Positions 2,954 to 49,690 are shown, numbered from the stretch's first letter. The stretch is 64,000 nucleotides of DNA from Prorocentrum cordatum (GCA_963575745.1 CAUYUJ010000181.1:372001-436000); one strand, 5' to 3'. Numbers and translations are program-made. Notes: generated from the sequence alone by a model not told the origin.

Positions 2954-5474
2954 TCAGGGCAAATCATGTGCTTTCAATGCCTTGAGCTTCTGGACCAGGT
3001 GGGAGTCACCCAGCCGCCAAATCAGGTGCAACTCGAAGCCCGTCGCGCCGGACCATCTCATGTTGAGACGGCGCAGCACGCGAGGCAAGCCTGCAAATTG
3101 CCACTGCCAGAAGAACGGAACTACAAGATAGATCGCGTCCCCCAGCTTGTCAGGAGGAGCCTGGATTGCGGGATGGCGCGCCTGTGCGACGGCTTGCAAG
3201 ATGAGAGAGCTGGCGCCTGATGCCTTCAGGCGGCCAACGAACTGCAAACCGAGGGAGGGGGAATTGCACAATCAAAAAAACCTCCTCGCCATGGCAACTG
3301 GCCACGCTCTGTGCGCGGAGGGGGCGTCGTGGAGACTGTCATCGCCAAGGGGGGTCCATTGACTGGTCGTCTTCTCGTGCACCCTGTAGCTGAATTTGCA
3401 CGGCTCGGGCCGTTTGAAAAGAAACACATCTAAAAGTGCCACCTCCGACGGAGCCACACTTTCGAGCTCCAAGGTGAAAGGTGACGACTCTCTGTTCAGC
3501 GTCGCCAAAAAACAAGTCTGGATTGTTATTGGGGCCGTCCAGGAAAGCGATGATGTCGTCTTTGAACCTGAAGTAAGTCACCAAACCTACTGACTGTACG
3601 AACGTTCGGTTTGAGAGAAGAGTGTTCTCGGCTGGAAAATAGGACGCTGCATTTGAGACCACACCACTGCAAATTATGCCCATCCCGCTGCCGCTCACGA
3701 CCTGCCAAATGGCGTCGAAGCCCGGGACCTCCACGAACTGGCTTCCAGAATAAACGTCAACGCAACAACGTACATTTGTTTGTGGTGCCCCTGGAAAAAA
3801 AACCTGAAACTTCGACCAATCAGCATCTCATAATACCCACTCATACAATATCATTTGACGTATATCTTCACGGCGGACACGTGTGGTGCGAACGACTTAT
3901 CCCGCAAGGCTCGCAGAAGCTGTGGCGGATCCTTCACGAGATGAGGTATGCGGACAAGATGCTGGCGTAGAAGGTGGCTCACGTACCGCATGGCTGGAAC
4001 AAGCGGGCTCCACGGCCGCATGCGGCAACAAAAAGCCGTCTCGTACAATTCCATTGGGACTTGTGGGCCTTAGCTGTTGCAGAGGCCCTGAAACGGATGG
4101 CACCAACATCCGAAGAACTACTCGCCAGAGTTTTCAATAGATCGTTGTCCATGTGGTCTCTTCCCTGGCCATCGCTCGGACGTCCATTCCCTGTGTTTTT
4201 TTTCCGGTTTCGCGCGTGTTTTTTCGCCAAATGATCAAGGATGCTCCTCGATGGTCCTCGCCGAAGGAAAAATGCACACGTCCGAGCGATGCCAGGTTCC
4301 TCTCCTACAGGAAGTGCTTGCACGTCTCCAAACACTCGCTGCAAGCGTCCCGTGCGTGCACGTCGAGGCACGGCACGTCGAGCCCGCGGCACAGTCAGGG
4401 CGTTGACCTAAGGAACCCTAAATAAGGAACGAGGCCCCTTTTTTTCCATAAGTTAAACTTCGACTTCCGATCGAAAGCCGAAGGACAACCTTGGGGAAGC
4501 TGTGAAACACGCAAGGAACACCCAGCCCCTCCCCAACGAAAAGGGTTCCTTCTTCAGGGCCCCGACTGTATCACGCGGGGTTCCGAAAACAGGAAAAGAA
4601 AACCATGTTCAGCCTCAGTTTGTGACACCTTGCGAAGCCACTGTCCCTGTCTGTAGGAAGAGCACCCCAAGCGGCATGGCGTAGAAGCCGAAAGCCTGAC
4701 GCAATGACCTTGGGGAGTGCTGGAGACAAGCCATGACGAATCCGTGCTTTCACGCATGCATCCCATACAGAACAAACCAAAATCCTCCAGGTAGGAAGCG
4801 CACGGCTGAAGGGCTCCACCAGGAAAAAGGGCGGGTGACAGCAGGTCTTTCAGCCAAGAAACGCCACTTCTGAGGCTCATCTCCAGAACAAGGTTGTCGC
4901 CAAACGGTTTTGTTTGACAAGTTCCCCAAGCTCAAGCCCATTTGAAATAGCGACGGCTTGCGAGTACAAGAAAAATGCGTTTGCGATGGAATCGAAGTAG
5001 ACACTCCACTGTCCAAGTCAATGTGCCCGGCTGCGGCACAGCAGTGGTCTTCTCCAGCGGGTCGTGCACATAGATCCCAGGATGACCTCTGCCGCACGTC
5101 AACAGGTTGCCCAAAAGTTTCGCAAATATGCCTCGGACTAACGATTCGAACGCAGCGATGATTGCCTGGCAGCGGCAACACTTCGGAGGGAAAGGAGATG
5201 TGAACGGACGGTGCCAATGACGATGGGATCGCCTATGCCCTTCCCTGATGCGTTGTAGCCTCAACCATTTCCGCGCTGCCCACGAACCCTGGGTTTGGGC
5301 TTGGGTTTCGGCTTGGGCTTCGGGGCTGGACAGCCCTTTTTGCCCTTGTCTTTCGAAGTTGTTTTGCCTTTCGGTGCCCCTTTTCCCGTTTCCTTTGCCC
5401 TTGCCTTTGTCGGACGCCTTGCCCTTACCGTTCGCCTTTCCCTTGCTGGTCGCTTTGCCCTTGCCTGCCCCCAT
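2954..5474 (-). pseudogene. Decayed Penelope-like element (PLE) reverse transcriptase, no GIY-YIG domain visible
   Basis: Frameshifted minus-strand pieces in PLE order: GKG-rich N-terminus; LPTDRDSGF (DK/DKG-like); TAKAHK (KxHK); HLVKD; GSGMG..CS (motif B'); YFRFKDDII (motif C); LLDV...YRVHEKTT...L...SLH (thumb); YLVVPF; stop at 2954. Confidence 0.8.
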
Positions 5475-9742: not shown

Positions 9743-12719
9743 CACATTCCAAGACGTACTACCACCGCCACGACCACTACGACTACCGCCGCTACTTCTA
9801 CTACGACCACCATGAGAAACATCCAACGCGCCCACATGTGAATAAGGATGGGGCATTGACGGGCTTTCACCGCGCAGCCCCTCCGAGCGCACAATCGCGT
9901 TGTTGCGCGAACATATGACAAAAGGACCCAGCGGCACATAGAAATTCACCAACTCCTCGGGGATATCTTTCACTGGAGGGCCCCCTGGGACTCTGCAGGC
10001 CATCGCATCTAGAGTAACAAAAACGCCAGAACGCGGGACAATTCCGACAAGCATTCCTGGAACGCAGCAGTCACGTGCGTCCCCCACCCCTCAGCCCGAC
10101 AGCAGCACGGTCCCACCCCCTCTGTGCTGGCACCCTCCCCTCTCAGGAATACTTCCGAGCAGTCGTTCAGATCCTTGACAGCTCACCGAGAGGAAGGTGG
10201 TGGGCTTCAGACACTCGCAACAGGAAACACGCATGTCAACATCTCCTCAGCCTCCTCCTCCTCCTTCTGCTCCTCCTTGTCTTCCTTCTTGTCATCCGCC
10301 TCCTTCTCCTCCTCCCCCTCCTCCCTCCGCTTCCCACATCCTCCTCCATGTGTGGTTGCGGAATAGAAAAACACGTGGTCCTCGTGTTCCGTCTCCTCCT
10401 CCTCCTCCTCCGCCTCTTCCTCGACCGTCTCGACAATTCCTTGCCCTCCAGGCTCCGTGGCGGTGGCGGTCCGCACTGGGGACACCCGTCGCTCTGAAGT
10501 GCTTCGGCGATTCCGCCCTGCCCCCCTCAGTCAGCAACACCGGCGACTGCGGAATACTGATGCAGGAGAGCCCAGAATCGAATCGATAAGTCGGATCGGC
10601 GATCGAACTTAATCGAATCGGCGCAAATCGGCAGCCAAGTCGGGAGAAGTCGAATCGGGAGACATCGGCAGGCTAGTAGGCCTCCATTGAGAAATCGTGT
10701 CCCTCCGAGTTTGTATGTTCATGTCATTCTTCGCTTCCCCAAAAAAGGGCGGCTGCGGGATACGGGTGTGCCCTCTGTGAAGATCTCGCGTCCCTGTCTA
10801 GTCTTACCCCGAGGGAGGGCCATGTGAAAGGCCCGCCGGACGATGTGGAGCTCGCTGCCCACGCCCTCGAGGGGCAGGTTGCCCAGCTTATGAGGCAACT
10901 CGGCCAGCCACGATATCTAAAACACCCGTCTGAATTCGAGGCTGGCACAGAACGTGCAGAACCCATGCCGTGCAAGTTGCGAGTTGCTGCGAGGAGCACA
11001 AGGCCACGCGGCATACGCCTGGATGCCCGGCCAACCATCACCGAGGCACCATGTCTAGAGTTCTTTTTGCTCAGCGGGCCATGCGACAATTTGACGAGCG
11101 CCTGCAACGAACTCGTAAGGTAAGGCATGCATCCCTGCCGTCCTCCCTGGACTATCTTCGCGGACGGGCCTGAATGTGGGGGACGTGCCCGCGCAGTCCG
11201 TATCCTCAGGACGGACGCCAGTCCCCCTCCCCCAGGCCACGATCTCGCTGCCGTCACCCGCGGCGGCAGGAACGGGGAGGGGATGTGGAAGCGAACACGT
11301 CGGGGGTCTGAGCCGAGCACCCCCGCGGAGGCATCCAGCAAGGGATGCCGAGGCGACTTCGTCCGCAGAGGCGTTTGCCCGAGGGGTCGACGCGGAGTGG
11401 CCCAAAAAACGCCCTCCGGACGAGCTGCAACCTGAGGGCTGAGGCAAGCTGCTGCGCGAGAGCGTCCGGCGGCGCTGACAGAGCAAGCGGGGCCCCCGCT
11501 ACCTCCGTGAAGAGTCTTGCCCACGGGGGGCCGTCCGCGACTGCAAAATGGCATGCGCGCTACTTCTTCGAAGGTCTGCTCCCCGTGGAGGTGGGGCCCC
11601 CCGCATCTTGCGCAAACTGCTCGGGTCAGGGGGGAAAGGCGGACATGGAGGAGGAGGAGGAGGAGGATGAGGAGGAGGAGGAGGAGGAGGAGGAGGAGGA
11701 GGAGGAGCGAGAGGAGGTGGAAGAGGAGGAGGGCGAGCAACAGGGAGAAGACTGACGAGGAGGACGATGCGACCCTCCGTCCCTCGTGGCCTCATGGGCA
11801 TGTCGCGCGGCATGATCCGCTGTATGCTGATCCCCTGCGGCGTCTCCTTCGCCTTGGCCTCGGAATGAAGCTCGCCTGCGCAGGCACAGAATCCGCCACC
11901 GTGCGCCCTGGCAGGGTGAGGCGTGGTAGAATGCCAGATGCCGTGTGCCTGGGCGCATGTGAATATTGTAAGGCTCCCCCTCCTCTCACCAAACAGTGGA
12001 GCGCACTGCGCCCCCACCCCCCTCAAGCGGCTCTTCGGGAGGACCGACGCTTCCCTCGGGCTCGCCAAGGCTCGCCACGAGGGAGGCCACCAACGCCGCC
12101 CCGATTGCCCAGCCCTGCCTCACGAGAAGAGGCGCCCAGCAGCCCACCAGAAGACCCCACAGGGGGCGCCGAAGGGGCGCCACGAGGCTTCCGCGACACC
12201 ACACAGAGGGCCAGGAGGCCCTCCAAGAAGGCCGCAATCACGCATACACACGCCAAGAGACATCCTGATTGAAAGTGTTGGATGTCCCGAGCCACTCGGT
12301 GCAACACGCTTCCGAGAAGAAGACGTCGGGGGAGCCGACAATGGCCCAATCTGGCCTCACGGAGGTCTCGAGAGGCTCCCACGGCCTGGGACCGCCCCGG
12401 CCGGGCGCCAAGAGAGCCCCAAGACAGCCAAACGGCGCCCCAGGAGGGGCCATCGCGGCTCCACGACAGCCAACAGAGGCGCTCCTCATGCGGCCAGGCG
12501 GGGCCCAAGACCGCCTGAAGACGGCCCCCTCCTCCTCCTCCTTCTCCTCCTCCTCCTCCTCCTCCTACTCCTCCTCCTTCTCCTCCTCCTCCTCCTCCCC
12601 GTCCTCCTCCTCCTCCGCCTCCTCCTCCTCCTCCTCGGCCGCAGGCCCCACGGGAGCCCTGAGCCTGCCCAGGTGGACCCCACGAGGGCCTCAGCCGACG
12701 TCTCTGCGACAGGTGTCAG

Positions 12720-14765: not shown

Positions 14766-15716
14766 GGTTTAGGTCGCGCAGGGCCTCCTACGGGGAATGT
14801 TGGAGGAAAAGTACAAAGCTGTGCAAGTTGATGCTTTCCCCACCATTCATCCTGTGGTGTCGGGTCCTCGCTTTGGGGAGATAGCGCCCCACGTTGCTTC
14901 CTCTCCTCCTTCCTCTCCTCCTCCTCTCGCTCCTCGCCCTCCTCCCTCCTCTCATCATCAGCATCATCATCTGCATCATCCGCATCATCGTCATCATTGT
15001 CATCACCATCATCGCCATCATCATCATCGCAGTTATCGTCACCATCATCGACACACATTTCGGCACACCCCTCACACGTTTCGTGGCCCCACGGGGAGCT
15101 CCACAGAAGGCCCCAGTGCCACCGTCCACATGCGTCCCCCACACCAATTTCGGCATACCCCCCCCACACGCTTCGTGGCCCCACAGGGAGCTCCACCGAA
15201 GGCCCCAGTGCCACCGCCCACATGCGTCACCCACACACATTTCGGCACACCCCTCACACGTGTCGTGGCCCCATGGGGAGCTCCACCGGATGCCCCAGTG
15301 CTACTGTCCACATGCACTGTCCACATGCACAAATTTCGGCACCCCTCTCACACGGTTGCCCCATGGGAAGCTCCACCGAAGGCTCCAGTGCCGCCGCCCG
15401 CATGCTTCCCCCACACCATTTTGGTACCCCTCTCACACGCTTAGTGGCCTCTTAGGGAGCTCCACCGAAGGCCCCAGTGCCACCGTCCACATGCGTCCGC
15501 CGCACCCATGTCGGCAAACCCCGCACAGGGTTCGTGGCCCCATAGGGAGAATCACCGAAGAAGATATTCACAATTGCGGTACCCACATCTGCATATGCTT
15601 GGGTCCTTCGCCAGGCATATATGAAGAATCATACAATTACAAGAATATCGTCCCAAAACTATGTTGGGCCTTTTTCTGAATTTTCCTCCTGTAGAGGGAC
15701 ATGCCCGATTTAAGGC
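14766..15716. mobile_element. MITE family A copy expanded by a nested satellite-carrying element
   Basis: Left TIR GGTTTAGGTCGCGCAGGGCCTCCTACGGGGAA and right TIR TCCTCCTGTAGAGGGACATGCCCGATTTAAGGC bracket the 14836-15562 insert. Confidence 0.6.
15050..15562 (-). repeat. ~91-bp tandem array related to the 1-1030 minisatellite
   Basis: Five to six units containing TTCGTGGCCCCA.GGGGAGCTCCACCGAAGGCCCCAGTG, the reverse complement of the core of the first array. Confidence 0.85.
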
Positions 15717-36900: not shown

Positions 36901-38494
36901 CACCAGCCGCACCTCATCGGGCACCTGCAGGCCGCCCGGAAGCGCTGGGTGCTCGAGGCGGCGCGCGCCAAGGCCCCCTGGCAGACGGTCCGCGGGCCCG
37001 CAGGCGCCTCCGTCGCCACCGCGCGGCGGCTGGGCTGGCAGACGCAAGCGGCGCACTCGATCACCACCGGCGCCGAGGTCACCGACTTGCGCCCAGTGAC
37101 GCTTCGAGAGCTCCGCTGCCGCCGTGAAGCAGTACACCGAGCAGGCATACAACATGGAGTCGCTGTTCGTGGAGCCCGTGAGGGCGCTGCTCAAGCGACC
37201 CGTCAAGGGCAGATGGGCGCGGGAACACCAGACCCGCGTGCGAACGCTCTGGTGCGGAGGCAACTGGCCGGAGGCGAGGCTCCACGAGAAGGGCGCCGTA
37301 ACCGACCCCACCTGCAAAACATGCCATGCGGAGGACGGGACGGACCGCCACCGCACCTTCGTGTGCACCGCCAGGGACGAGCACCGCTGCGCCGTCGGCG
37401 GCCGGCACATCGCCCACCGCGGGGCGCGACCGTGGCCTGGGTCAGAGCAGCTCTGGGGCTGCGGCCTGGCGTGCGGCCCCGCCGAGGAGCTGGGGCTGTG
37501 GCAGCTGCTGTCGTCCAGCGAGAGCCTCGTTCAGGGCGACTGCGACGGCTTCGTCACAGGCGATGTGCACACGGACGGGAGTCTCCGCTACGGCTCCTAC
37601 GCGGCGCTGAGGCGCGGCGGTTGGGCCTTCGTACAATTGACGGAGGGCCTGGACATGAAGTTCGCGGTCTACGGGCCGCTCCCAGGCGCGCAGTGGGACC
37701 AGAGCATCTACAAGAGCGAGCTCATGGCGATCCTGCGCGTACTCCAGGTGGCCTGCCCGCCCGTGCGCGTCTGGTCCGACTGCCAGGCCATCCTGGGCGG
37801 CTTCGAGCGCGGCCCAGCCTGGGCCGACCACCCGGCCACCCTCCACAACGACTTGTGGCGGGAGTGCTGGGCCAAGATCGAGGATAACGGAGGGGTAGGA
37901 CCTAGAGGCATCAGCTTCAGCAAAGTGAAAGCGCACGCCACTAGACTGCAGAGGGCCCAAATGGGTCCAGATCGTTTCATTGGGAATCAATTCGCAGATG
38001 AATTTGCCAAGCTCGGAGCCCAGCGGCAGCAACATGCGCCGTGGCACAGAGCAGCATATATCCAGCGTTTTAAACTCGTTTCAGATGTGCTCGAGTTCGC
38101 AGCCTACGTAGCAGTACTTGGGCAAGGGCTCGTTGCCACCTCCGAAGGTTCGGAACCTCCCAGAGAGGCTCCGAGCCGTCCCAGCCCCCCTCCCCCCGTG
38201 CCTAGCGGGGAAGCGGAGGAGACTGCGGGACCTCTACTTCCGCCGCCTGGTCCCCCTCCTCCCCCCCTGGGGGTGCCGGATGGGGACGGAGGCAGGATCG
38301 AACGGGCCCGCGCCAGAGGGCACCAGGTGGTGCGCCTCCCCAGAGTGGTGTTCTGTCGGTCGTGCGCTAGGTACGCCACGGACCGATGGGTTGGACTCTT
38401 GACCAGATGCCCCGGGGGAAATCCCCGGACGATCTCTGGACGTTTAAAGCGTTTGTGGCAAGGCAGGCACCCCACCACGAACAGGCCGTTTTGA
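33950..38494 (+). pseudogene. ORF2 APE-RT-RNase H polyprotein, disrupted by stops and frameshifts
   Basis: EN: SAGVLI, GSVYL, WILGGDFN, RDYFIVS, PHLPV. RT: LLAKPSGGHRSLGL, FDLVKCFD, RGIVAGS, LFDDL. RNase H: VHTDGS, SELMAI, WSDCQ, HNDLW, KVKAH, GNQFADEFAK. C-terminal GH...FCRSC. Confidence 0.88.
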
Positions 38495-38610
38495 TGCTTG
38501 GCCCCACAATACCGCTCAGGAGAGGCCTGGGGTGAGGGCGCGCCAAGGTTTCAGGCTGATTGCACCCCTGAGGCGGTCCTCTCAGACCTAGCAGCGGAAA
38601 TCCTCGGTAA

Positions 38611-38764
38611 TCCTCCTCCTCCTCCTCCTCCTCCTCCTCCTCCTATTCCTCTTCCTCCTCCTCCTCCTCCTCCTCCTCCTCCTCCTCCTCTCCTCCTCCT
38701 CCTCCTCCGGCCCCCTCCCCCTCCTCCTCCTCCTCCTCCTCCTCCTCCTCCTCCTCCTCCTCCT
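38611..38764. repeat. (CCT)n microsatellite between two retroelements
   Basis: Direct inspection. Confidence 0.97.
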
Positions 38765-38788
38765 CAGGCTGGGACCAAGCTTGCAAAC

Positions 38789-40798
38789 ATGTCGTCGATC
38801 TGTCGTTCATTTAGGGTTGCTGACCTTGCTGGTATCGTGCACGAGGACTTGAACATTGCCGCTCATGGTTTCGATTTGGTTCGGCTGCCGCTTCATGGAA
38901 GGTGGCTATACAAGCGAAGCCGTAACGAGCAGCAGACAATGTTTGACCATGGGTGCAAGGTTTGGGATCGACATTGGCGCATCCAGGGTTTATTGCCTTT
39001 GCCAGATTTGCTGAAACGGCAAACGGCCGTTCTGAGGCCGACGGTTCGGGTCGACGCAGAACATTCTGAATGTATTGAAGTTTTGGCGCAGTGTGGAAAA
39101 CGCTTGGCAGTGACGGTAGAGGACAAAGATCCAAATTCATTATGGGCTTGCTCACCCTTGCACGCCATTATGCGTTGGATGTGGTTGATTGCCAGATCAG
39201 GGGATAGATGGTCCTTCAGTTTCGTGCCCGCTCATCGCGTAGTTGCTTTGTACAGGCACTGGTTTGACAACTCGATTCCCCGGAACTTGCTTCCCAAGCG
39301 GTTCCCGATCTCATTGTCGACTATACCGTACGTTTACCATACCATTAAGCGCAAATGCTGGCGCAATTCATACCCATGTTGCTACCAGTCTGCATCCGCA
39401 CATCAATGCACTAAGCCACGACACTCCTGCGTGAGGAATATCATCAGCTTCGCTCGTATGCCAGGGAGACGCGTCTGGAGGGCTGCAGGCAGAGCACTTG
39501 GTTACCTTGTTCGCAAGTTTACGCCTGGCTGGTCAACTTCTAGCTTGCACACCGCATTTGATGAAGTCCGGCGAGCCGCTGAACAACTTCAAGGTCCAGC
39601 TTCTGATGTTCCACAGTGTGAATTGTGCCATGCTTCGATGGCCTTTCCGGGCATGTGTGTTGCAGATGCCGGCCAAGCATACGAGTCCATCCAAGTAGAG
39701 CATATAAATTCTACACTTGAATCTTTGTTCGAGGTAGCCGCTGGTGATCCGCACCACGCTTTTCTGCAAGTTTATCACAACCGGAAGCGACCTGTCTCTG
39801 CAGGGGGCCGAGTTGGGCTCGATTTTCGTGACCGTATAGTTTTCGCTTTGGGATCGTTGCAGAAGATTTTCAGTGCATTTTTGGAGATGCGTTTCTTTCG
39901 TTTTGGTGATTTCTTCTTGGTCCAACACGCTGGGATACCAATCGGAGGACCTCTTAGCCCAGCTATATTGGATTCAGTTTTGTCGAAGCAAGAGCATAAT
40001 TTCGACATGGAGTATCCTCTTCGTGCACGGCTCTTCTTTGCCACTCGGTACGTTGACGATTTGCTGCTTGGGTCTCGACGGTTATGCCGGTCATGTCTCT
40101 TGCGCGTCATACCCGTTGTTTATGGTGACGTGATCTCCTTCGACGCGGACGACTCTTGGCATGTGCATGGCGGAGTTGTGATACAACCATTCCTGGATGG
40201 TGTGATCCATTTTGCTTGGGACGGTCTCAGTGTTGCTTTTGAGCATCGTAACATGGAGTTTGCCTTTACTGCGAACTGGGACACCATCAAGAAGCGATCG
40301 CTCCAGCCAGCACCCGGTCTCGTGTCTAAGGATGATCTTCAATACCAACGCGGCGAACTCATAGGAAGACTTCGGCGCTGGCGTGCGATCAGTGACTGCA
40401 TGGTGTCTTCTGTTACCGCTGTATATTGTGACATTCTATGTTTTCAGCACCACGGGTACGATAGCAAACACATCCAGGCATTGTTCACGAACTTGCCGCT
40501 GCACGCAGATCTGTTGGCAGTGATCGACATTGTCCGGAAATTCGCTTACGTGCATCGCCGGCTCAGCCCCCAATCGCAAGGTCAGATGCTTGCTCAAGTG
40601 TTATCGCTTGGATTGCCTACTGAGTCCTGGCCTGGCCTTCCGATGGCATACCAGAGTGGCGTGAGGCAAAATGCGCCTGCTGAATCCGAGGCCGCCCAGC
40701 TAGCTTGGGCATCTCTTCTTCTGGTCACGTCGGAGACCAAATTCACTGCAGCAGGGCTCCACGTCGCACAGATGTGTCTCTGGATGCAGCAGTTGTGA
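38789..40798 (+). CDS. Intact Penelope-like / TERT-related reverse transcriptase (~669 aa) with Cys/His-rich insertions; no endonuclease in the retained portion
   Basis: VEDKD; PYVYHTIKRK; RNIIS; motif A VADAGQAYESI; motif B' QHAGIPIGGPLS; motif C RYVDDLL; FLD; HGY. No stop or frameshift, and lower GC than the flanks. Confidence 0.88.
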   Translation: MSSICRSFRVADLAGIVHEDLNIAAHGFDLVRLPLHGRWLYKRSRNEQQTMFDHGCKVWDRHWRIQGLLPLPDLLKRQTAVLRPTVRVDAEHSECIEVLAQCGKRLAVTVEDKDPNSLWACSPLHAIMRWMWLIARSGDRWSFSFVPAHRVVALYRHWFDNSIPRNLLPKRFPISLSTIPYVYHTIKRKCWRNSYPCCYQSASAHQCTKPRHSCVRNIISFARMPGRRVWRAAGRALGYLVRKFTPGWSTSSLHTAFDEVRRAAEQLQGPASDVPQCELCHASMAFPGMCVADAGQAYESIQVEHINSTLESLFEVAAGDPHHAFLQVYHNRKRPVSAGGRVGLDFRDRIVFALGSLQKIFSAFLEMRFFRFGDFFLVQHAGIPIGGPLSPAILDSVLSKQEHNFDMEYPLRARLFFATRYVDDLLLGSRRLCRSCLLRVIPVVYGDVISFDADDSWHVHGGVVIQPFLDGVIHFAWDGLSVAFEHRNMEFAFTANWDTIKKRSLQPAPGLVSKDDLQYQRGELIGRLRRWRAISDCMVSSVTAVYCDILCFQHHGYDSKHIQALFTNLPLHADLLAVIDIVRKFAYVHRRLSPQSQGQMLAQVLSLGLPTESWPGLPMAYQSGVRQNAPAESEAAQLAWASLLLVTSETKFTAAGLHVAQMCLWMQQL

Positions 40799-41108
40799 AG
40801 TATGATGCGCACGTGTGCTTCGTTGTTGTCGCTCTGTCCCGCCCTTTCTTGGGATGGATTCTCTTTGATTCCTTGTAGCAGTGAGTAGCATTTACAATGA
40901 ATTGTCATAGCAGTGATCGGGATGCGATTGTTCATGTAATCCGTAGCTCCATATTCCGGTTCAGGGGTCCACTGAGTGGCCGCTGGCATGCCCCAGGACG
41001 CGCTCAAGTAGCACAGCGGGCGTCACCCCTGATAAAAAGAGCTTTGCTCCGAGGCCCTGGGAGGCAGGTAATTTGTCAATTATTTGCTGAACAGTTTCAC
41101 TTAGCAAC

Positions 41109-41192
41109 GGAGGAGGAGGAGGAGGGGGAGGAGGAGGAGGAGGAGGAGGAGGAGGAGGAGGAGGAGGAGGAGGAGGAGGAGGAGGGGGAGGG
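41109..41192. repeat. (GGA)n microsatellite at the 3' end of the PLE-like element
   Basis: Direct inspection. Confidence 0.97.
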
Positions 41193-41890
41193 GGCCAAAG
41201 AGGTCCCAAAGACGGCCCCAGGAGAGCCCCTAGACGGCCCAGGAGTCCTCCAAGACGCCCAAGACGGCCTCCAAGACGACGCTGGAGCACCCCAAAAGGG
41301 CCCCAAGTCGGCCCAGAGAGGCCCCCAAGTCGGCTCCCGACGGCGTCAGGCAGGCCAGGAGCCGACCAAGACGGCCCAAGATGAATCTAAGATGGCCCAA
41401 GACGGCCCAAGAGGACCCAAGAGGTCTCCAACACGGCCCAAGAGGCCTCCAAGAGCGCCTCCAGAAGGCCCGACGAGGCCAACATCATTGATTTGCCTCA
41501 AGTGTTTCAATGAGTTTGGCAATTGCTTTTTGTTCGGCCTTCCGACGGCCCGAGACGGCCCAGGAGCCCCAAAAATCACCCCAAGATCGCCCAAGAGGCC
41601 TCCAGGATGGCCCCAGAACAGCCTAAGAGGCCCCCATGACGGCCCCAAGAGGGCCCCAGAACGGCCTAAGAGTCCTCCAAGACGCCCAAGACGGCCTCCA
41701 AGACGACGCTGGAGCACCCCAAAAGGGCCCCAAGTCGGCCCAGAAAGGCCCCCAAGACGGCTTCCGACAGCGTCAGACGGGCAAGGAATGCACTAAGACA
41801 GCCGAAGAGGCCCCCAAGATGCATCCAAGATGCATCCAAGAGGCTCCAAGGAAGCTCCCAGGAGGCTCCAAGAGTGCCCCCAGAGAATCC
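41193..41890. repeat. CCAAGA-rich ~11-bp degenerate minisatellite element with a perfect 75-bp internal duplication
   Basis: 41243-41317 equals 41670-41744. The same CCAAGA family occurs at ~2110-2240, 12350-12530, 28035-28340, 43800-44070, 52140-52510, 61700-62135 and 63905-64000. Confidence 0.85.
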
Positions 41891-42149
41891 CATGATGCCC
41901 CCTGCACCTCCTCCTCCTCCTTCTCCTCCTCCTTCAGATCTTCCCCGCACTCCTCCCCCAAGTGCTCCCCGAAGGGTTTCCACAACGGTTTGGGAAACAC
42001 ACGGTCCGATAGTTTGGCAGACTTCTTGCCGAAACGATCTGCCACATGGGCGATTCCAAAAGGCAGGGGGCGGCGGTGACTCGCCGTAGGCGTCTTCGAT
42101 ATCCACTGTAGCCCACGTGTAACACGACTGCGCTTCCTTCAAAATGGAG

Positions 42150-42720
42150 GGCGGCATTGGCGTGGACATCCCCACCACGCTGTGGATCAGCACGGGCGTT
42201 ATGGCGGCACCAGGAGAAAACCTTTCCGATGCTGTGGTGGAGACTACTGGTGTCCCTCGCGCTACTACCAGCGATCTACCACATTTGGACCAAGGGGCGC
42301 CTCGTCTACGGCAGCCATGGCTTCCAAGAAGTGCACCGTGGACGCGGCAGCTCGTCTACTCGTTCGGTCCGACGCCGTCGCCAAGCACCCCGACATGGCT
42401 GAGGTGCCGGCGTTGGAGGAAATGGACAAGTGCTTCGATCGGGCTTTCTGGGCACGGGCTGCCTGTCGCAGCTCGCCGCTTCCATTTCCTAATCACAGCT
42501 CGCGGTTCCAATTTCCAAGCTCATTGAGACGTGGCGCCAGACGTGCTGTGGAGCCCGCCCACCACCCCTCCCAGAGGCAGGCCGTGGACGAGGCCGCCCG
42601 GCATGCCGCTGGGACGAGCACTGGAAAAGGCACTCGCTTGCAAAGATTGGAGAGCCATGGCACGTCGCTGCTCGAGACCGGGGGATCTGGCGTGCGCAGG
42701 CCGAGGGCTACGCGCAATGG
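42150..42720 (+). pseudogene. Highly degraded LINE RT C-terminal fragment
   Basis: Short frames LLPAIYHIWTKGRLVYG and GRGRGRPACRWDEHW resemble the post-RT region of RTE-like LINEs. Confidence 0.4.
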
Positions 42721-42816
42721 CTGTCTTCCACAACCCCTCTTGCCTTCGGGGAGGGACCCCCCCCCCTCCCCTCCCTGGTTTTTGTTTGAAGGTTTTGCGA
42801 GCTGTCGGGGGCCACT

Positions 42817-43717
42817 CGTTTACGAGGGAGCTCGTGTACGCGGACGACACGTTGCTCATAGACTCCGACCCAGCCCTCGTTCAAGAGCTGATGCGCTGCA
42901 TTGAGGAGTGCGGGGGCCAGTGCGGGCTGCAGTTCAATTGGGGCAAGTTGGAACTTATGAAAGTAAGGGCCGAAGCTAATATTTTGGGACGCAACGAGGT
43001 CCCCATCCCAGCCAAGCAATCATTAATTTATCTCGGGACGTCTCTTGCTGCGGACGGGCGCATAGGCACAGAACTGAGTCGGAGAATTGGGGCGGCCAGA
43101 AGTGACTTCAAGGTGCTTGCAAGAATATGGTCGCATTCGACTTTGAGTAGGAGACAGAAACTACGTATATTTAATGCTTGCGTTGTTTCCAAACTCACGT
43201 ATGTATTATTCACTGCGTGTCTTAACCAGGCCGAGCGAAGACGGCTCGACGGGTTCCAGAATTATTGTCTCAGACGTATTTGCAGAGTCTCTCCGTCGTA
43301 CATCAGTCGGGTGTCGAACCGTGCAGTTCTGCAGATCAGCCAACAGACGCCTCTGAGCCATAGTCTTGCGCGTAGACAGATGTTGTACATGGGCCATTTG
43401 GCGAGAAGACCAGACGAGGATCCAGTCAGAAGCTCGGTATTTGAGCCGGGCGGTCTGGTTCTCAAGAGCCTTCTTGGGAAAAGGAGAAGAGGCCGCCCGA
43501 GACAGTCTTGGGGGCCCATGGTGCTGAAGCACTGCTTGAATGTTGCCGGCTCCCATGAGCGACTTGCTGATTACTTCCGCCGAGAGGGCGGTGCAGCTCG
43601 CAGGTGGGAGCAGGCGGTCAAGGCATGGGCGGCGTGCTGAAGGCATCCGTTTCCGTGCACATTTTCACCCATTGCTCACGCGCTGTGGCCGGCGCAAGGC
43701 TTCTGGACTGGACTGGA
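42817..43717 (+). mobile_element. 5'-truncated RTE-like LINE with (CTGGA)3 tail and 11-bp TSD
   Basis: Open frame ELVYADDTLL...GLQFNWGK...YLG...RRIGAA...KLRIFNACVVSKL...RRRGRPRQSW to the stop at 43640; TSD CGGGGGCCACT at 42806-42816 and 43718-43728. Confidence 0.92.
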
Positions 43718-44289: not shown

Positions 44290-44681
44290 TGTCCTCCTCT
44301 TCCTCCTCCTCCTCCTCCTCCTCCTCCTCCTCCTTCTCCCCCTCTCCTGCTACTCTCCCAGCCTGTGCCCGCACGACTGACGCCCCAAGACTTCCCCTCG
44401 GTCAGACCAGGAGTCTCTCCAGTCTCCTACTGCTCCTACTGCTCCTCTCTCCCTCGTCCCCGTCCTCCTCCTCCTCCTCCTCCTCCTCCTCCTCCTCCTC
44501 CTCCTCCTGCTCCTGCTCATGCTCCTCCTCCTCCTCCTCCCTCCTCCCTCCTCACTCCTCCGCCTCCTCCTCCTCCTCGTCCTTCCTCGCCGCCCTGTTC
44601 CTCACCCTTCCCCTCCTTCACCATTCCCATCCCTTTCCGCCCTCCCTCCTCCTCCTCCTCCTCCTCCTCCTCCTCCTCCTC
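44290..44681. repeat. (CCT)n-rich tract forming the 3' flank of the intact LINE
   Basis: Direct inspection. Confidence 0.95.
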
Positions 44682-44707
44682 GCACGTAGCTGCGCGCCAC
44701 ATGTCCC

Positions 44708-47700
44708 TCATCCGCGCTGGCCGCCGCGCACCCTCGCCCGCGTGAGCTGGACCCTCGTGAGGGGTACAGCAGACTGTGCCACCTCTAAAGTAAGAGGTTC
44801 AGGTGGCATGAAGAGCGAGCGGAGATTCACGAACAGGAGATAGGCAGCAGCGGGGACGGTAAGACTAGAGATGGTCGGGAGAAAAACACCAGAGCGACAG
44901 ATCGGACAGTAATGAACTTGGGAGCACAAAACAGATTCGAGAAGCTGGATGAAGCGTGGGCAGCACCAATAGTGGACGAAGCTGTCGGGGCCGCCGCAGC
45001 CCAGCAGACAGCACAAGGGCACACTGTCGTGAAACCGCACGGCTGTGATCCAACTACCAGATAGAGTCTTCCATATCGCATTCACTAAAGGGCCTCTCAT
45101 TCGAATGAGAAGCTCGCGGACCTCTTCCCATTTCACGTGCACCAGGACCTCCGCGGCCTCAGGGAACCAACGGGCCCAACGCTCCGAGAAAACAACGTCC
45201 AGGGAATCGGGGAAGAGTTCTCGTTGGAAAATCTTCAGCAGTCTACCTTGCATCTTCACATTCTTAGGGGGGCGAGAGAGGGCGGAGGCAGAGGTCAGGA
45301 GCTCCAGCGCAGCCTCACGGGCGATCGATCCAGCCCGAGCCAGGTCCCGAGAGCGGGAGAAGCCACCGGCCGCATCCGAGAGATGCTCCACAAACGCTGG
45401 TGACTGCCAGAAGCGCGGGGACAGTTTCCCTGCCGAGAGATCAACGATCTCAAGATGGCGAGAAGCAAACTCAGACAGCTGTTCCAAGAGCATTCGATAT
45501 TCAGGGAACGTGTTGACAGCTGCTCTCATAAGAGTGGCACAACTCAAGGACCTCACGCTCGTGAGTTGCGGTCCTCCCCACAGGTGAAGCGAGAACCAGC
45601 CACTCCGAGGAAGCGTGCAATGGGGGACTTTGAAGAGAGAGGCGAAGGAGGCATGCTCAATACGAGAGAGAGGGGCAGGAAGGGCAGGGCAAAGCTCAGG
45701 GATGGGACAGAATTGGGCGACATAGGTAAGGGTTGAGACGGCACGGCTAGAGTACATATACTCTGTGATGGCCGGCGGCGCGCCGACTTTGGCAATCTGC
45801 ACTGTACGTCCTGCCCATTTCAAAAGAGGCTTGTGCCAGCTCTCAGTGGTCACACTGGGCCCAAGAATCATGCCAAGATAGGTCAGGGAACTCACAACCT
45901 GGAACGCTCCCCAGTCGGGGAGAAAGTTCTGAAGCCAGAATCGATACTTGGCGACGAGGGTGGCCGAGAAGGGGCCCGCAAGAGGAACCAGGAAACACTT
46001 GGCATACTTGAGCTTGAGACAAGCGAGGGCCTCACTGCAGTCGAATACGGCCTTCAGCTGAAGTAGATCACGAAGCGCTGAAACCACAGATCCAATATCA
46101 TCAGCACAAGCCCTGGCCATACTCATCTGGCGTTCTCGAGCTCGACCTATGAGATCTTCTCGCAGCTCGCCAGGTGGCACATCATTCTGAGCTTCCAGCC
46201 GCTTCCACATATCCACGAGAAAGGGGTGGCTCCCGACGGCGAAAAGGGCGCCAGACCCTGGGCATCCTTGAATGATCCCCGACATGATGTAAAACAAGAA
46301 ACAGCATACTCTGCCGAAAGTACCAAAGCAGCGAACGTTCGTATACAACGTCTCTACGAAGATCTGCATGGGCAGCGGCACATGGAAGGCAGCAAGCGTC
46401 ATCATGATCCATCGGTGCGCGACCGACGGGAAGGCCTGTCCGTAATCGAAAGATATCAAGGCTGGAAGCCGAGCAGCGGCATCGGGGAGCATCGAAACCA
46501 TTCGGGCTCGCACGTCGAGCTCGAGGATATTTAGACCAAAATTCCTCCCTCCGACGAATCCCCTTTGAGAATAGTGGACTTTATCACCCAGTCGACGTGA
46601 TAAACTCTCGAAAACGACGCCCGTGACCAGCTTGTTCGACGATTGTTTTAGTCCTAGAGGCCGGGTAGCTTCAGCGTTCCGAACGATCATATGGGAATCC
46701 TGCTCCTCATCTCCTTTGGCTATGAATACTCCTCGAACATCATTGAAGGCTGGTAACATGCTCCTCCCACTTAATAACCACCAAACCACCTCATCTAGAA
46801 TGTTAAGACCGTGTGGATGTCGTTTCCATGCTCGATAGGGGAGGCCATCCAACCCTGGGGAACTATCTTCCGCACGTTCGATACGCCGTTGAAGAGCATG
46901 CAGGGATGGAGGGGGAAGGTCAGAAAGATCAATACCATCACAATGCTGACGAAGATAAGATTGGGCAGCTGGAACATTGATGGATTTTTCTGCAAACACG
47001 GGTCGCCAATGTTCCCCAAGCTCTTGGAGGACAGCAGCTGGTGACGAGACAACCGACTCCCCATCGGAGGCTCGTACTCCTTGCAGGGTCATTCTGCGAT
47101 CAAAAGGCGTCCAGAGGCGGCCCCTGCGATGCGTGCACTTAAGCCGTCGCCTGGCTTTCGCTCTGGCGGGCTCTGCACTGGCATTCGCAATGTCTTGTTT
47201 GTATTTAGCTTCTCGTTGTTTGGCAATAGTGAGGTGAATCTCATTGGCTCGCCTCTGGAACTCTGGCGGGTCAATCAACTCCACTGTCCCCTCCAGCAGG
47301 TTGATCTGTAGAAACTCCTTACCTGGAGCGTGAGATCGCCAAACACGGTGCGCTAGACGCACATCCTGCCTCCAGAGGCATCTCCCGATACTTTTGATGA
47401 CCAGGAGCTGGGTAAAACTCGATGATGGTGATTTTCGAATCAAGGAGTCCCGAGCGATCTTGGCGGCCTCACGCATCATCTCAGTCTGAAACGCTAGCCT
47501 CAAGGGTGGTGTCATCCTGCTCTGGTCACACTCAGCCTCTACCGCTTCCAGGAACCGAACGTAGTCAGGATGTTCGCAGACTTCGGGGGCAACTGGCCTC
47601 TCAGAGGCCGGGATAGATCCAGCAGGTTTGAGGGTGACCTGGATCGGGGCGTGGTCGGATATCCCTTTCTTGCTGAGAATATCAGGGTATTCAACTACCT

Positions 47701-48433
47701 TCCCTTCGACGGACATCTGCAGGAGCATCCACCCAGGCATCGAAATAAACTGCCGATCTATGTAGCTGAGCATCCGCGTCGGCTGGTAATGATGGGTAGG
47801 TTCTGGCACTTCTAATTCCACCATCCTCCTCAACACCTCCATCCACCCACCGTCCTGCGTACTCCTCCACTCCTGAAGATACCGAAGCGTCTGCTCATCT
47901 ACTTCCGCCTCAGGTTCCTTGCGTGGCGGCGTGCATGCAAAGTTGAAATCACCTGATATGACGACAAGCAACGCAGACGGGTCCGCCTCTGCGACCTCGA
48001 GGTCGTACTTAATTGAATCCAAGGCCTTCTTCTTAGCTATGGATCCTAGCTGGTAGTTGTGAACATTGTAGTGGACGACGGCAAAATCCCCAAAATCAAT
48101 CGCAACTCTGAGAACTCGACCTGGGACCTGAACTTCTGGAAGAATCAGAGGGGCCTCGGAACCAAGGTGCAGGAATTTCGGCACAAAGGTCGTGACACCT
48201 CCGGCATTGGAACTTGAACAGAACGAGCTAAATGCGGTATATCTATGATGCAGATTGTGCTGATAAAGAAGGTCTTGGACTTGTAACTCACTACCGTGGC
48301 ATTCTTGCACCCCTATGATACTGCCTGGAAGAAAGAGTTGACGGAGGAGATGGGCTTTCCTTTCTTGGAGGGGGAGTTCGTGATGGAAGAGGGCTCGGGC
48401 ATTCCAGGATGATAGTATCAAAGGCAAGATCAT
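44708..48433 (-). CDS. LINE ORF2: APE endonuclease + reverse transcriptase + C-terminal CCHC motif (~1241 aa from ATG 48433)
   Basis: EN: SWNARAL, GVQECH, AGGV, NVHNY, ISGDFN, YIDR, SDHAPI. RT: SSPGLDGLPY, RPLGL, QRGFVGGR, FDYGQAFPSV, SGIIQGCPGS, ACADDIG, YLG. C-terminus: CLLGC...HYWCC. Confidence 0.95.
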   Translation of the reverse strand: MILPLILSSWNARALFHHELPLQERKAHLLRQLFLPGSIIGVQECHGSELQVQDLLYQHNLHHRYTAFSSFCSSSNAGGVTTFVPKFLHLGSEAPLILPEVQVPGRVLRVAIDFGDFAVVHYNVHNYQLGSIAKKKALDSIKYDLEVAEADPSALLVVISGDFNFACTPPRKEPEAEVDEQTLRYLQEWRSTQDGGWMEVLRRMVELEVPEPTHHYQPTRMLSYIDRQFISMPGWMLLQMSVEGKVVEYPDILSKKGISDHAPIQVTLKPAGSIPASERPVAPEVCEHPDYVRFLEAVEAECDQSRMTPPLRLAFQTEMMREAAKIARDSLIRKSPSSSFTQLLVIKSIGRCLWRQDVRLAHRVWRSHAPGKEFLQINLLEGTVELIDPPEFQRRANEIHLTIAKQREAKYKQDIANASAEPARAKARRRLKCTHRRGRLWTPFDRRMTLQGVRASDGESVVSSPAAVLQELGEHWRPVFAEKSINVPAAQSYLRQHCDGIDLSDLPPPSLHALQRRIERAEDSSPGLDGLPYRAWKRHPHGLNILDEVVWWLLSGRSMLPAFNDVRGVFIAKGDEEQDSHMIVRNAEATRPLGLKQSSNKLVTGVVFESLSRRLGDKVHYSQRGFVGGRNFGLNILELDVRARMVSMLPDAAARLPALISFDYGQAFPSVAHRWIMMTLAAFHVPLPMQIFVETLYTNVRCFGTFGRVCCFLFYIMSGIIQGCPGSGALFAVGSHPFLVDMWKRLEAQNDVPPGELREDLIGRARERQMSMARACADDIGSVVSALRDLLQLKAVFDCSEALACLKLKYAKCFLVPLAGPFSATLVAKYRFWLQNFLPDWGAFQVVSSLTYLGMILGPSVTTESWHKPLLKWAGRTVQIAKVGAPPAITEYMYSSRAVSTLTYVAQFCPIPELCPALPAPLSRIEHASFASLFKVPHCTLPRSGWFSLHLWGGPQLTSVRSLSCATLMRAAVNTFPEYRMLLEQLSEFASRHLEIVDLSAGKLSPRFWQSPAFVEHLSDAAGGFSRSRDLARAGSIAREAALELLTSASALSRPPKNVKMQGRLLKIFQRELFPDSLDVVFSERWARWFPEAAEVLVHVKWEEVRELLIRMRGPLVNAIWKTLSGSWITAVRFHDSVPLCCLLGCGGPDSFVHYWCCPRFIQLLESVLCSQVHYCPICRSGVFLPTISSLTVPAAAYLLFVNLRSLFMPPEPLTLEVAQSAVPLTRVQLTRARVRGGQRG

Positions 48434-48467
48434 GCCTCTCTCGTCGCGCCAATGGCGCTGGAGCCCG

Positions 48468-49484
48468 CTAAAGAGACCACTGAGGAGGTGCTGCGACGTG
48501 TCCTGATGCATGGAAGCGTTGGAGCACAAGATCTTTGTCCAGCCCCAAGGCGAGCATGTTGGGCACACACCATTCCAGGACGGGCTCCTCGTCTCCTGGT
48601 TTGGGCGTGAAACGTACCAGAGGCTTCCAGTTCGCCGACAGCTCGCCTTTCGCCTTGTCGGTGAAGAGGCGCAGGTTGCCATCGACCTCTTGGAAGGCCT
48701 TCCGCAACTGCTTGAGGCCGAGTTCCTTCTTGACCATGGCGGGGTTCTTGTCCGTGCTGACGTATATCTCACAATTCGCACCAAGCATGTCTTTGCACGC
48801 GTGATGTTCCCACTGTCCATTTCCGAGTCGTAGTGCTCCCATCGCCTGGGCCACCTTCCTTGCGGCGTAGGTGGCGTTCCCCTTGATGCGGAAGACGAAC
48901 CGCTTCCCTGCAGGCTCCGACTGGTAGTCATAGTCATCTGGTGCAAGCTGGGCACGGGCCAACCAGTCAGCCAGAGCTCCTTGAACTGCACTACGACTGC
49001 ATACATTCTTCGTCCTGGCGACGATGATGCACGGGTCAACCATCCTGTTGAAGGACGTGTCGGTGACCACGGTCTGCGGCTCTTCGTTCTTGATGCACTG
49101 CAATAGTTCCTGTAGCTGGGAGACTCGTCGCTCCAGGGTCGCGACACGGTTGTTGGTGCTCTTCTGCTCGGCCTGCAGCTCCGCGTAGCGCATCTCCACC
49201 CTCTTGGTGATGGCGTCGCAGTTGGCCGAGATGGTGGAGCTGAACTGCGTGACACTGGCGTGCAGCTTGGCGACGGCTCCGAGCATCTCTCCACGGGTGG
49301 AATCAACCACAGCGCGCAGATTAGCAACAGCTTCAAGAGGATCCTCGGCAAGACGGGCAGTCTTGCTCGGGGGGCTCGTACTGCCACCTGTCGCTCCAGC
49401 CTCCTGGGACGGGAACGTGGCCATGGCGTCGAGTTCCTCTGCCAGCCGTCGAGCCTCGGGGCTGCTCGGCATGGCATGGGCCAT
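48468..49484 (-). CDS. LINE ORF1 (338 aa; N-terminal coiled coil, putative RNA-binding C-terminal half)
   Basis: Uninterrupted ORF directly upstream of ORF2, with the heptad segment VEMRYAELQAEQKSTNNRVATLERRVSQLQELL. Confidence 0.85.
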   Translation of the reverse strand: MAHAMPSSPEARRLAEELDAMATFPSQEAGATGGSTSPPSKTARLAEDPLEAVANLRAVVDSTRGEMLGAVAKLHASVTQFSSTISANCDAITKRVEMRYAELQAEQKSTNNRVATLERRVSQLQELLQCIKNEEPQTVVTDTSFNRMVDPCIIVARTKNVCSRSAVQGALADWLARAQLAPDDYDYQSEPAGKRFVFRIKGNATYAARKVAQAMGALRLGNGQWEHHACKDMLGANCEIYVSTDKNPAMVKKELGLKQLRKAFQEVDGNLRLFTDKAKGELSANWKPLVRFTPKPGDEEPVLEWCVPNMLALGLDKDLVLQRFHASGHVAAPPQWSL

Positions 49485-49619
49485 GCCACACAGTCAGATG
49501 CCAAAAAGATCTCACAGCGCCAGGCGGCTCCTGTGAGGATCGTGGGGTGAAGGCTGCGGGACTCGAGCCAGCCCCTCGCCTGCGTTCAAGCTAAAGCCGC
49601 CAGGGCACCGCGGTTTTAA

Positions 49620-49641
49620 CTTGAGCCAAAATGGCTACGGA
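49620..49641 (-). other. Perfect 22-nt dinoflagellate spliced leader (TCCGTAGCCATTTTGGCTCAAG)
   Basis: The plus strand reads CTTGAGCCAAAATGGCTACGGA, the exact reverse complement of DCCGTAGCCATTTTGGCTCAAG with D=T. Confidence 0.97.
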
Positions 49642-49690
49642 CCTCCTCCTCCTCCTCCTCCTCCTCCTCCTCCTCCTCCTCCTGCTCCTT
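49642..49690. repeat. (CCT)n tract forming the 5' flank of the intact LINE
   Basis: Direct inspection. Confidence 0.97.

Follow-up and report, generated by a model that had tools for sequence, protein, structure and literature searches.

A long interspersed nuclear element of Prorocentrum cordatum that begins with a complete spliced leader and was probably copied from a trans-spliced RNA

A stretch of 64,000 nucleotides from Prorocentrum cordatum (GCA_963575745.1 CAUYUJ010000181.1:372001-436000; the whole stretch is referred to below as the window) was analysed. It contains, on its minus strand, a long interspersed nuclear element (LINE) with two uninterrupted open reading frames (ORFs), the first 22 nt of which are an exact copy of the spliced leader that dinoflagellates use (DinoSL). 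Dinoflagellate mRNAs receive DinoSL by trans-splicing, and the RNA from which this element was copied probably obtained its leader in the same way. The parts of the element and its borders are listed in 5′ to 3′ order, with coordinates of the full 64-kb window (UTR, untranslated region; APE, apurinic/apyrimidinic endonuclease).

49642..49690 (−), 5′ flanking (GAG)n microsatellite; adjoins the leader and is counted as target DNA, outside the element
49620..49641 (−), DinoSL, exact, 22 nt, the first 22 nt of the element (motif scan and sequence reading)
49485..49619 (−), 5′ UTR, 135 nt, beginning TTAAAACC, without a GT donor
48468..49484 (−), ORF1, 338 aa plus stop, uninterrupted, L1 ORF1p-like
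48434..49477 (−), ORF2 frame (+1 relative to ORF1) continued without stops over all of ORF1; first ATG at 49477, open from 49585
34 nt (−), spacer between ORF1 and ORF2 (sequence reading)
44708..48433 (−), ORF2, 1241 aa plus TGA, uninterrupted (ATG at 48433, TGA at 44710-44708)
47651..48409 (−), APE-type endonuclease domain, ORF2 residues 9-261 (Pfam Exo_endo_phos plus motifs)
46064..46672 (−), reverse transcriptase (RT) core, ORF2 residues 588-790, with ADD at residue 777 (Pfam RVT_1 plus motifs)
44960..45010 (−), CCHC-like motif CLLGCGGPDSFVHYWCC, ORF2 residues 1142-1158 (sequence reading)
44682..44707 (−), 3′ UTR, 26 nt, without poly(A) (sequence reading)
44643..44681 (−), 3′ (GAG)13; GA-rich low-complexity sequence extends to about 44424

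The leader, TCCGTAGCCATTTTGGCTCAAG at 49620-49641(−), was the sole match at up to three mismatches in the window, and none of 100 shuffled sequences contained any match. It is preceded directly by 14 perfect GAG-type units (49683-49642), with GA-rich DNA farther out, and is followed directly by TTAAAACCGCGG and not by GT. A preliminary description of the locus had reported an exact 22-nt DinoSL fused to (GAG)n, and this was confirmed with small corrections to the coordinates. The same (GAG) repeat borders both ends of the element, which sets the insertion boundaries at the first leader nucleotide and at the 3′ tail; the element is inserted within a (GAG)n microsatellite. The repeat at both ends and the missing poly(A) are absent from the preliminary description. 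The (GAG)13 at the 3′ end belongs either to the element, as its tail, or to the target microsatellite, as the half beyond the insertion. Self-BLAST of the element revealed no second copy in the window, and tblastn of ORF2 against the window gave just one match, of 85 aa (E 0.007).

The domain structure of ORF2 was assigned with Pfam and with an alignment, A1, of the window ORF2 and six database relatives (seven sequences). Exo_endo_phos matched along its full profile across residues 9-261 (E 1.2e-3) and RVT_1 matched across residues 588-790 (E 6.7e-6), both under the Pfam cut-off. These calls were accepted because of the conserved motifs in A1 and the match of its profile to L1 ORF2p: the GDFNF, SDH and ADD motifs are invariant across the seven sequences, which also have the C-terminal pattern C..GC...HY..CP in common, and the best match of the A1 profile in the PDB was human L1 ORF2p (E 3.6e-35; 8sxt, 8uw3), with R2 proteins behind it (E 3e-29). 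The A1 profile was needed for this result, since phmmer of ORF2 alone against PDB sequences returned 0 matches. ORF1 matched no Pfam family above the cut-off. An AlphaFold (AF2) model built from five ORF1 sequences (mean predicted local distance difference test score, pLDDT, 74.7) has a long helix at 49-133 followed by alpha/beta domains. When this model was searched with Foldseek, the top seven chains were all from human L1 ORF1p trimers (2ykp, 2yko, 2ykq; best 2ykp, E 6e-4, prob 1.0), with template-modelling (TM) scores of just 0.28-0.47 which were put down to differently placed domains. On the model, ORF1p is predicted to consist of a coiled coil, a domain like the RNA-recognition motif (RRM) and a C-terminal domain. 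The uninterrupted ORF1 and APE-RT-CCHC ORF2 of the preliminary description were thus confirmed, at 338 and 1241 aa, and the element is an intact APE-type L1-like non-LTR (long terminal repeat) retrotransposon, L1-like in both proteins.

Further copies of the family were found in sequencing runs. In the DNA run X1, 141 short contigs mapped to the element at 85-100% likeness, and one of these, which differs at a single position, spans 49393-49634 (5′ UTR plus the 3′-terminal 15 nt of the leader). Repeats at 44660-44688 and 49635-49665 were masked in read mapping and the junction between the leader and (GAG)n was therefore unbridged. Among the 40 differences listed for X1, eight are nonsynonymous and 32 synonymous, and third codon positions account for 32; 165 more lie outside this list. 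These substitutions show that the family copies have diverged under purifying selection for working proteins. The runs X7 and X11, which are guessed to be RNA, gave two contigs each, confined to 45672-46351 inside ORF2. EukProt contains fragments (P0010, P0014, P0015) with 95% identity to the element, which match the C-terminus of ORF1 (124 aa) and a 61-aa segment of ORF2. The family is living and multicopy, and the element is recently active.

More distant relatives were obtained by searching metagenome contigs with A1, which gave 80 loci (439 kb); ORF maps were made for nine of these. Two of the nine, L120 and L126, are intact with a complete ORF1 and upstream sequence, and both have leader sequence directly after a simple repeat. 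In L120 a (ACATATAAA)n-like repeat is followed by the exact 22-nt TCCGTAGCCATTTTGGCTCAAG at 117-138, an 87-nt UTR and ORF1; its proteins are 31% (ORF2, E 7e-164) and 26% (ORF1, E 3e-34) identical to those of the window element. L126 begins with a (TA)n-type repeat, followed by TTGGCTCAAG at 38-47, a 43-nt UTR and ORF1, and its ORF2 is 25% identical to that of the window element. Its leader comprises the final 10 nt exactly (15 nt with two mismatches) and is 5′-shortened, as expected from a cDNA ending a few bases early. All five exact occurrences of the 10-mer TTGGCTCAAG in the 439 kb of loci are on the element strand, the opposite strand having none. The 5′ UTRs of the window element, L120 and L126 gave alignment scores no better than those of shuffled sequences. 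A leader kept at 22 of 22 positions, beside proteins of 25-31% identity and UTRs that cannot be aligned, argues that it is supplied afresh by trans-splicing and then copied. The leader-derived 5′ end thus appears, on these comparisons, to be a property of the LINE clade and not an accident of one copy.

L122, L131, L132, L147 and L184 were cut by contig ends. Of these, L132 is the closest LINE relative (36% ORF2 identity), and its contig also bears, at about 10088-10140(+), the typical 5′ end of a retrogene, in which two decayed relic units (CCACATTGGCTCAAG and, after it, TCGCTCTTTTGGCTCGAAC) come after a full DinoSL. The DinoSL-tagged retrogene on this contig assigns the LINE clade to a dinoflagellate genome. 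A pattern search for ORF1 relatives in JGI metagenome contigs gave 298 matches, none of which was confirmed; the ORF2 pattern had no match in viral contigs, in which A1 found one distant match (L200); and A1 found 19 loci at 20-26% identity in prokaryote genome contigs, none with a leader sequence.

The template RNA of this intact L1-like LINE probably gained a DinoSL through trans-splicing and was reverse-transcribed as far as its first nucleotide, by a process that, to judge from the related sequences, recurs in the clade. In the preliminary description the intermediate had been a mature trans-spliced mRNA copied to its very first nucleotide. Trans-splicing and complete copying are upheld by the recurrence in L120 and L126; the missing poly(A) speaks against the word 'mature'.

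Such a template would be produced if the element RNA were released and capped by trans-splicing of the host spliced leader (SL), its 5′ end not being set by a promoter of the element. A new copy within a transcribed region would be trans-spliced again, and reuse of the terminal AG of the genomic leader as acceptor would rebuild exactly one leader per cycle. This AG is preceded by the pyrimidine-rich CCATTTTGGCTC, and the chances that it is reused as the next acceptor are rated as about even. Splicing at the internal AG (between GTAG and CC) would instead add a 15-nt relic each cycle. The relic in host retrogenes is usually the 15-nt CCATTTTGGCTCAAG, i.e. the acceptor lies inside the leader (PMC12014239). 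No 15-nt relic unit follows either of the two full leaders (window element and L120), while the L132 retrogene has both leader and relics. The lack of a relic after many LINE cycles favours the terminal AG, on a sample of two; a single leaderless master copy would also explain the missing relics. A fuller proposal is that the LINE clade has handed its 5′ end to the host, with terminal-AG trans-splicing from read-through transcripts, no promoter and translation of ORF2 by leaky scanning; this is tentative, at somewhat less than an even chance. Promoter independence, reuse of the AG and a role in mRNA recycling, all raised in the preliminary description, are hypotheses.

Several points weigh against this explanation or fail to help it. 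The recurrence sample amounts to three elements in total. Upstream of L187, a decayed locus, 7 kb of sequence contain no recognisable leader, and the likewise decayed L123 has just a degenerate leader-like 17-mer, GTGGTTTTGGGCTCAAG, which precedes what is left of its ORF1 by about 1.2 kb. The internal AG being the usual choice in host retrogenes, reuse of the terminal AG is not the default expectation. Owing to the missing poly(A), the template is not one that was copied as a standard polyadenylated mRNA. Finally, the EukProt fragments P0010, P0014 and P0015 carry the label of Pyramimonas sp., which is a loose end for the host label, since a LINE tagged with DinoSL is not expected in a green alga; contamination of the data set or a wrong label would account for it, and contamination is a guess.

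An unlikely alternative, though the strongest of those considered, is that the LINE has its own promoter and that copies merely derive from trans-spliced transcripts, with no role for the leader in the next cycle. Leader relics are commonplace on dinoflagellate retrocopies (PMC12014239, PMC6050394), and the conserved 5′ UTRs of Symbiodinium LINEs are described without mention of a leader in the main text of de Mendoza et al. (PMC5890265). Occasional trans-splicing, however, would yield a minority of leader-bearing copies, whereas both intact complete relatives bear leader sequence, and serial cycles with splicing at the internal AG should accumulate 15-nt units, of which neither of the two full leaders shows any.

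It is very improbable that the leader was acquired once, long ago, and has since been inherited as ordinary 5′ UTR without renewal by trans-splicing. A genomic leader would indeed be transmitted if transcription started at it or just upstream of it. The leader is nevertheless identical at 22 of 22 positions in the window element and L120 despite ORFs just 26-31% identical, beside neighbouring UTRs without similarity above that of shuffles. A start farther upstream would carry flanking sequence into daughter copies, yet three distinct flanks are seen, (GAG)n, (ACATATAAA)n-like and (TA)n.

Slighter still is the probability of an artefact, i.e. an assembly chimera, cDNA contamination or a jump of the RT onto free SL RNA. 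The junction adjoins a microsatellite, which is error-prone in assemblies, and the repeat at 49635-49665 was masked in read mapping. Against this, the same layout is present on two independent metagenome contigs, and the X1 contig runs from the 5′ UTR into the leader. Chimeras of U6 and L1 are known and are the basis for what a jump would be expected to leave: the RT would copy the whole SL RNA with its intron, not the exon alone ending at AAG. A jump onto free SL RNA was rejected for this reason.

That the LINE was inserted site-specifically into an SL RNA gene in the manner of CRE/SLACS/CZAR and NeSL-1, or that the 22-mer is the exon of such a gene, is barely credible and was rejected, for only the full leader beside a LINE speaks for it, while the leader is followed by a 135-nt UTR and ORF1 instead of a GT donor, (GAG)n and not SL-gene sequence lies on both flanks, three elements have three different flanking repeats, the endonuclease is an N-terminal APE and not the restriction-like enzyme of those families, and Rfam gave 0 matches in the window (it may hold no DinoSL RNA model). 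The preliminary description had excluded an SL RNA gene on the grounds that TTAAAACCGCGG and not GT follows the leader, and this was confirmed.

The ORF2 frame is open beyond the ORF2 start codon. In the window it contains 0 stop codons over ORF1 where 11.4 are expected, and 0 of 5000 codon-order shuffles were as low; the corresponding numbers are 0 against 5.6 expected in L120 (104-1273; P = 2e-4) and 0 against 3.8 expected over the partial ORF1 of L122 (2-579; P = 0.007). This does not hold for L126. Relative to the ORF1 ATG, the ATG of the ORF2 frame is found 7 nt downstream in the window element and 68 nt upstream in L120, and its context is weak in both. The extension peptide is Ser/Arg/Pro-rich in the window and Ser/Leu/Pro-rich in L120, and the two peptides align locally once at best, and weakly (44 aa, E 3e-4). 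From this pattern the frame looks as though it were kept open for ribosomes and not for its peptide sequence; some of the ribosomes that scan from the capped leader may enter the extension and read into ORF2, as an overlapping long ORF2.

At the other end, the element copy terminates in (GAG)13 26 nt past the ORF2 stop, with no poly(A). The 3′ end of L132 is (CAT)13 at 4783-4821, about 110 nt past the end of ORF2, and that of L187 is A-rich sequence plus (AT)12 at 10140-10175, about 60 nt past the stop. The lack of poly(A), together with these simple-repeat ends in relatives, argues for priming that is specific to the tail or the 3′ UTR and not based on poly(A). Reverse transcription would be primed by pairing between the repeat tail of the RNA and a similar repeat in the nicked target. 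The window is very dense in (GGA)n/(TCC)n microsatellites, with more than 30 tracts of at least seven units in both orientations, and such tracts are so common in it that insertion into one of them by chance has a non-negligible probability. The notion that the (GAG)n tracts of the window are themselves LINE tails was rejected, there being more than 30 of them, in both orientations and with no common upstream sequence. The lack of poly(A) also weakens the idea that the RT of the element recycles ordinary polyadenylated host mRNAs.

The element combines two known kinds, an L1-like LINE and a leader-tagged retrocopy. As in DinoSL-tagged retrocopies, a DNA-encoded leader at the 5′ end of a transcribed unit marks a trans-spliced template (PMC5585692). 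Unlike these it is autonomous, with its own ORF1 and ORF2, and it has one full leader without the 15-nt relics typical of retrogenes and a simple-repeat tail without poly(A). In the text available from the dinoflagellate retrogene papers, LINEs figure just as the presumed source of RT (PMC5585692, PMC6050394). With human LINE-1 the element shares a bicistronic organization, an ORF1p with coiled coil, RRM-like and C-terminal domains and an ORF2p with APE, RT and CCHC. L1 has an internal 5′ UTR promoter and a poly(A) tail; the present element starts with a host leader, ends in (GAG)n and has its ORF2 frame open across all of ORF1.

LINEs are also found physically beside spliced-leader sequence in trypanosomatids (CRE1/CRE2, SLACS, CZAR) and in C. 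elegans (NeSL-1). These elements insert at a fixed site in SL RNA genes, in which the leader exon is joined at a GT donor to a short intron containing an Sm site, and they are flanked by SL-gene sequence; the CRE/SLACS/CZAR and NeSL elements lack an APE and carry a restriction-like endonuclease that is C-terminal to the RT. The present element has microsatellite flanks, an APE-type endonuclease and a complete leader that belongs to the transcript, so that the distinction from CRE/SLACS/NeSL insertion drawn in the preliminary description stands.

Co-transcribed LINEs whose 5′ end is cut by a ribozyme of their own, like that of hepatitis delta virus (R2; L1Tc/L1TcRz), offer a functional analogy, in that the element RNA is freed from a longer host co-transcript and does not begin at an initiation site of its own (PMC4035085, PMC3383444). 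The release proposed here would differ in being carried out by host SL trans-splicing, which would also supply the cap; L1Tc transcripts are reported to be unspliced (PMC1874656). The SymbioLINE elements of Symbiodinium are dinoflagellate LINEs which likewise have two ORFs, APE and RT and no poly(A), and for which target-site duplications and conserved UTRs are reported (de Mendoza et al. 2018, PMC5890265). ORF1 of SymbioLINE-Dnmt encodes a DNA (cytosine) methyltransferase (PMC5890265), whereas ORF1 of the window element has an L1 ORF1p-like fold and matched no DNA methyltransferase (DNMT) family at E up to 0.01. The main text of PMC5890265, supplements not included, contains 0 occurrences of 'spliced leader' or 'DinoSL'.

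Copies of DinoSL in dinoflagellate viruses are a further case of a parasite genome that carries the host leader at the 5′ end of messages; for an RNA virus the leader has been reported at the 5′ end of transcripts (PMC9651163). The viral leaders differ in being encoded mimics, which in giant-virus contigs stand behind a viral promoter motif, while the LINE leader would be a by-product of reverse transcription. In 119 DinoSL-bearing viral-contig stretches (L001-L119; IMG/VR, mostly 'GVMAG'), 133 distinct exact DinoSL 21-mers were counted, 126 of them with A first and just three with GT next. They stand mostly behind a near-verbatim common AT-rich motif and before unique sequence, several per contig, and look like a genome-encoded host leader behind a viral promoter. 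No LINE was found in these stretches by tblastn with ORF1, ORF2 and P0001-P0008. The DinoSL-bearing viral contigs are AT-rich and giant-virus-like and hence provide no baseline for nuclear retrogenes.

Dinoflagellate genomes are rich in leader-tagged retrogenes. The enzyme behind these is stated to be unknown in PMC5585692 and PMC6050394, where LINEs or Ty1/copia are guessed. The present element points to a dinoflagellate LINE RT that is able to copy trans-spliced RNA to its first nucleotide. If such LINEs made the retrogenes, the latter should have the insertion signature of these elements, a simple-repeat tail in place of poly(A) and a target of like repeat. Gene sets in which 'retrogenes' are counted by an upstream DinoSL will take in LINE ORFs. 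Song et al. found 'RNA-dependent DNA replication' enriched among leader-tagged retrogenes and took this as a sign of the driver (PMC5585692); the enrichment may reflect LINE ORFs counted as retrogenes. LINE 5′ ends are otherwise made by internal promoters or self-cleaving ribozymes; host trans-splicing would be a third route, and its built-in acceptor could renew the end in every cycle. Searches of the literature outside supplements and subscription-only papers turned up no account of a LINE whose genomic copies begin with DinoSL.

The window (GC content 61%) holds some other repeats besides. Retroelement remnants lie on the opposite strand at 37100-43637(+), with RNase H at 37100-38491 and pieces of RVT_1 at 38495-40795 and 42528-43637; they have no sequence-level kinship to the LINE and no leader close by. 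A tandem array of a 77-nt unit (about 13 copies, 72% matches) occupies positions 9-1044, and a 90-nt tandem array is located at 15051-15560.

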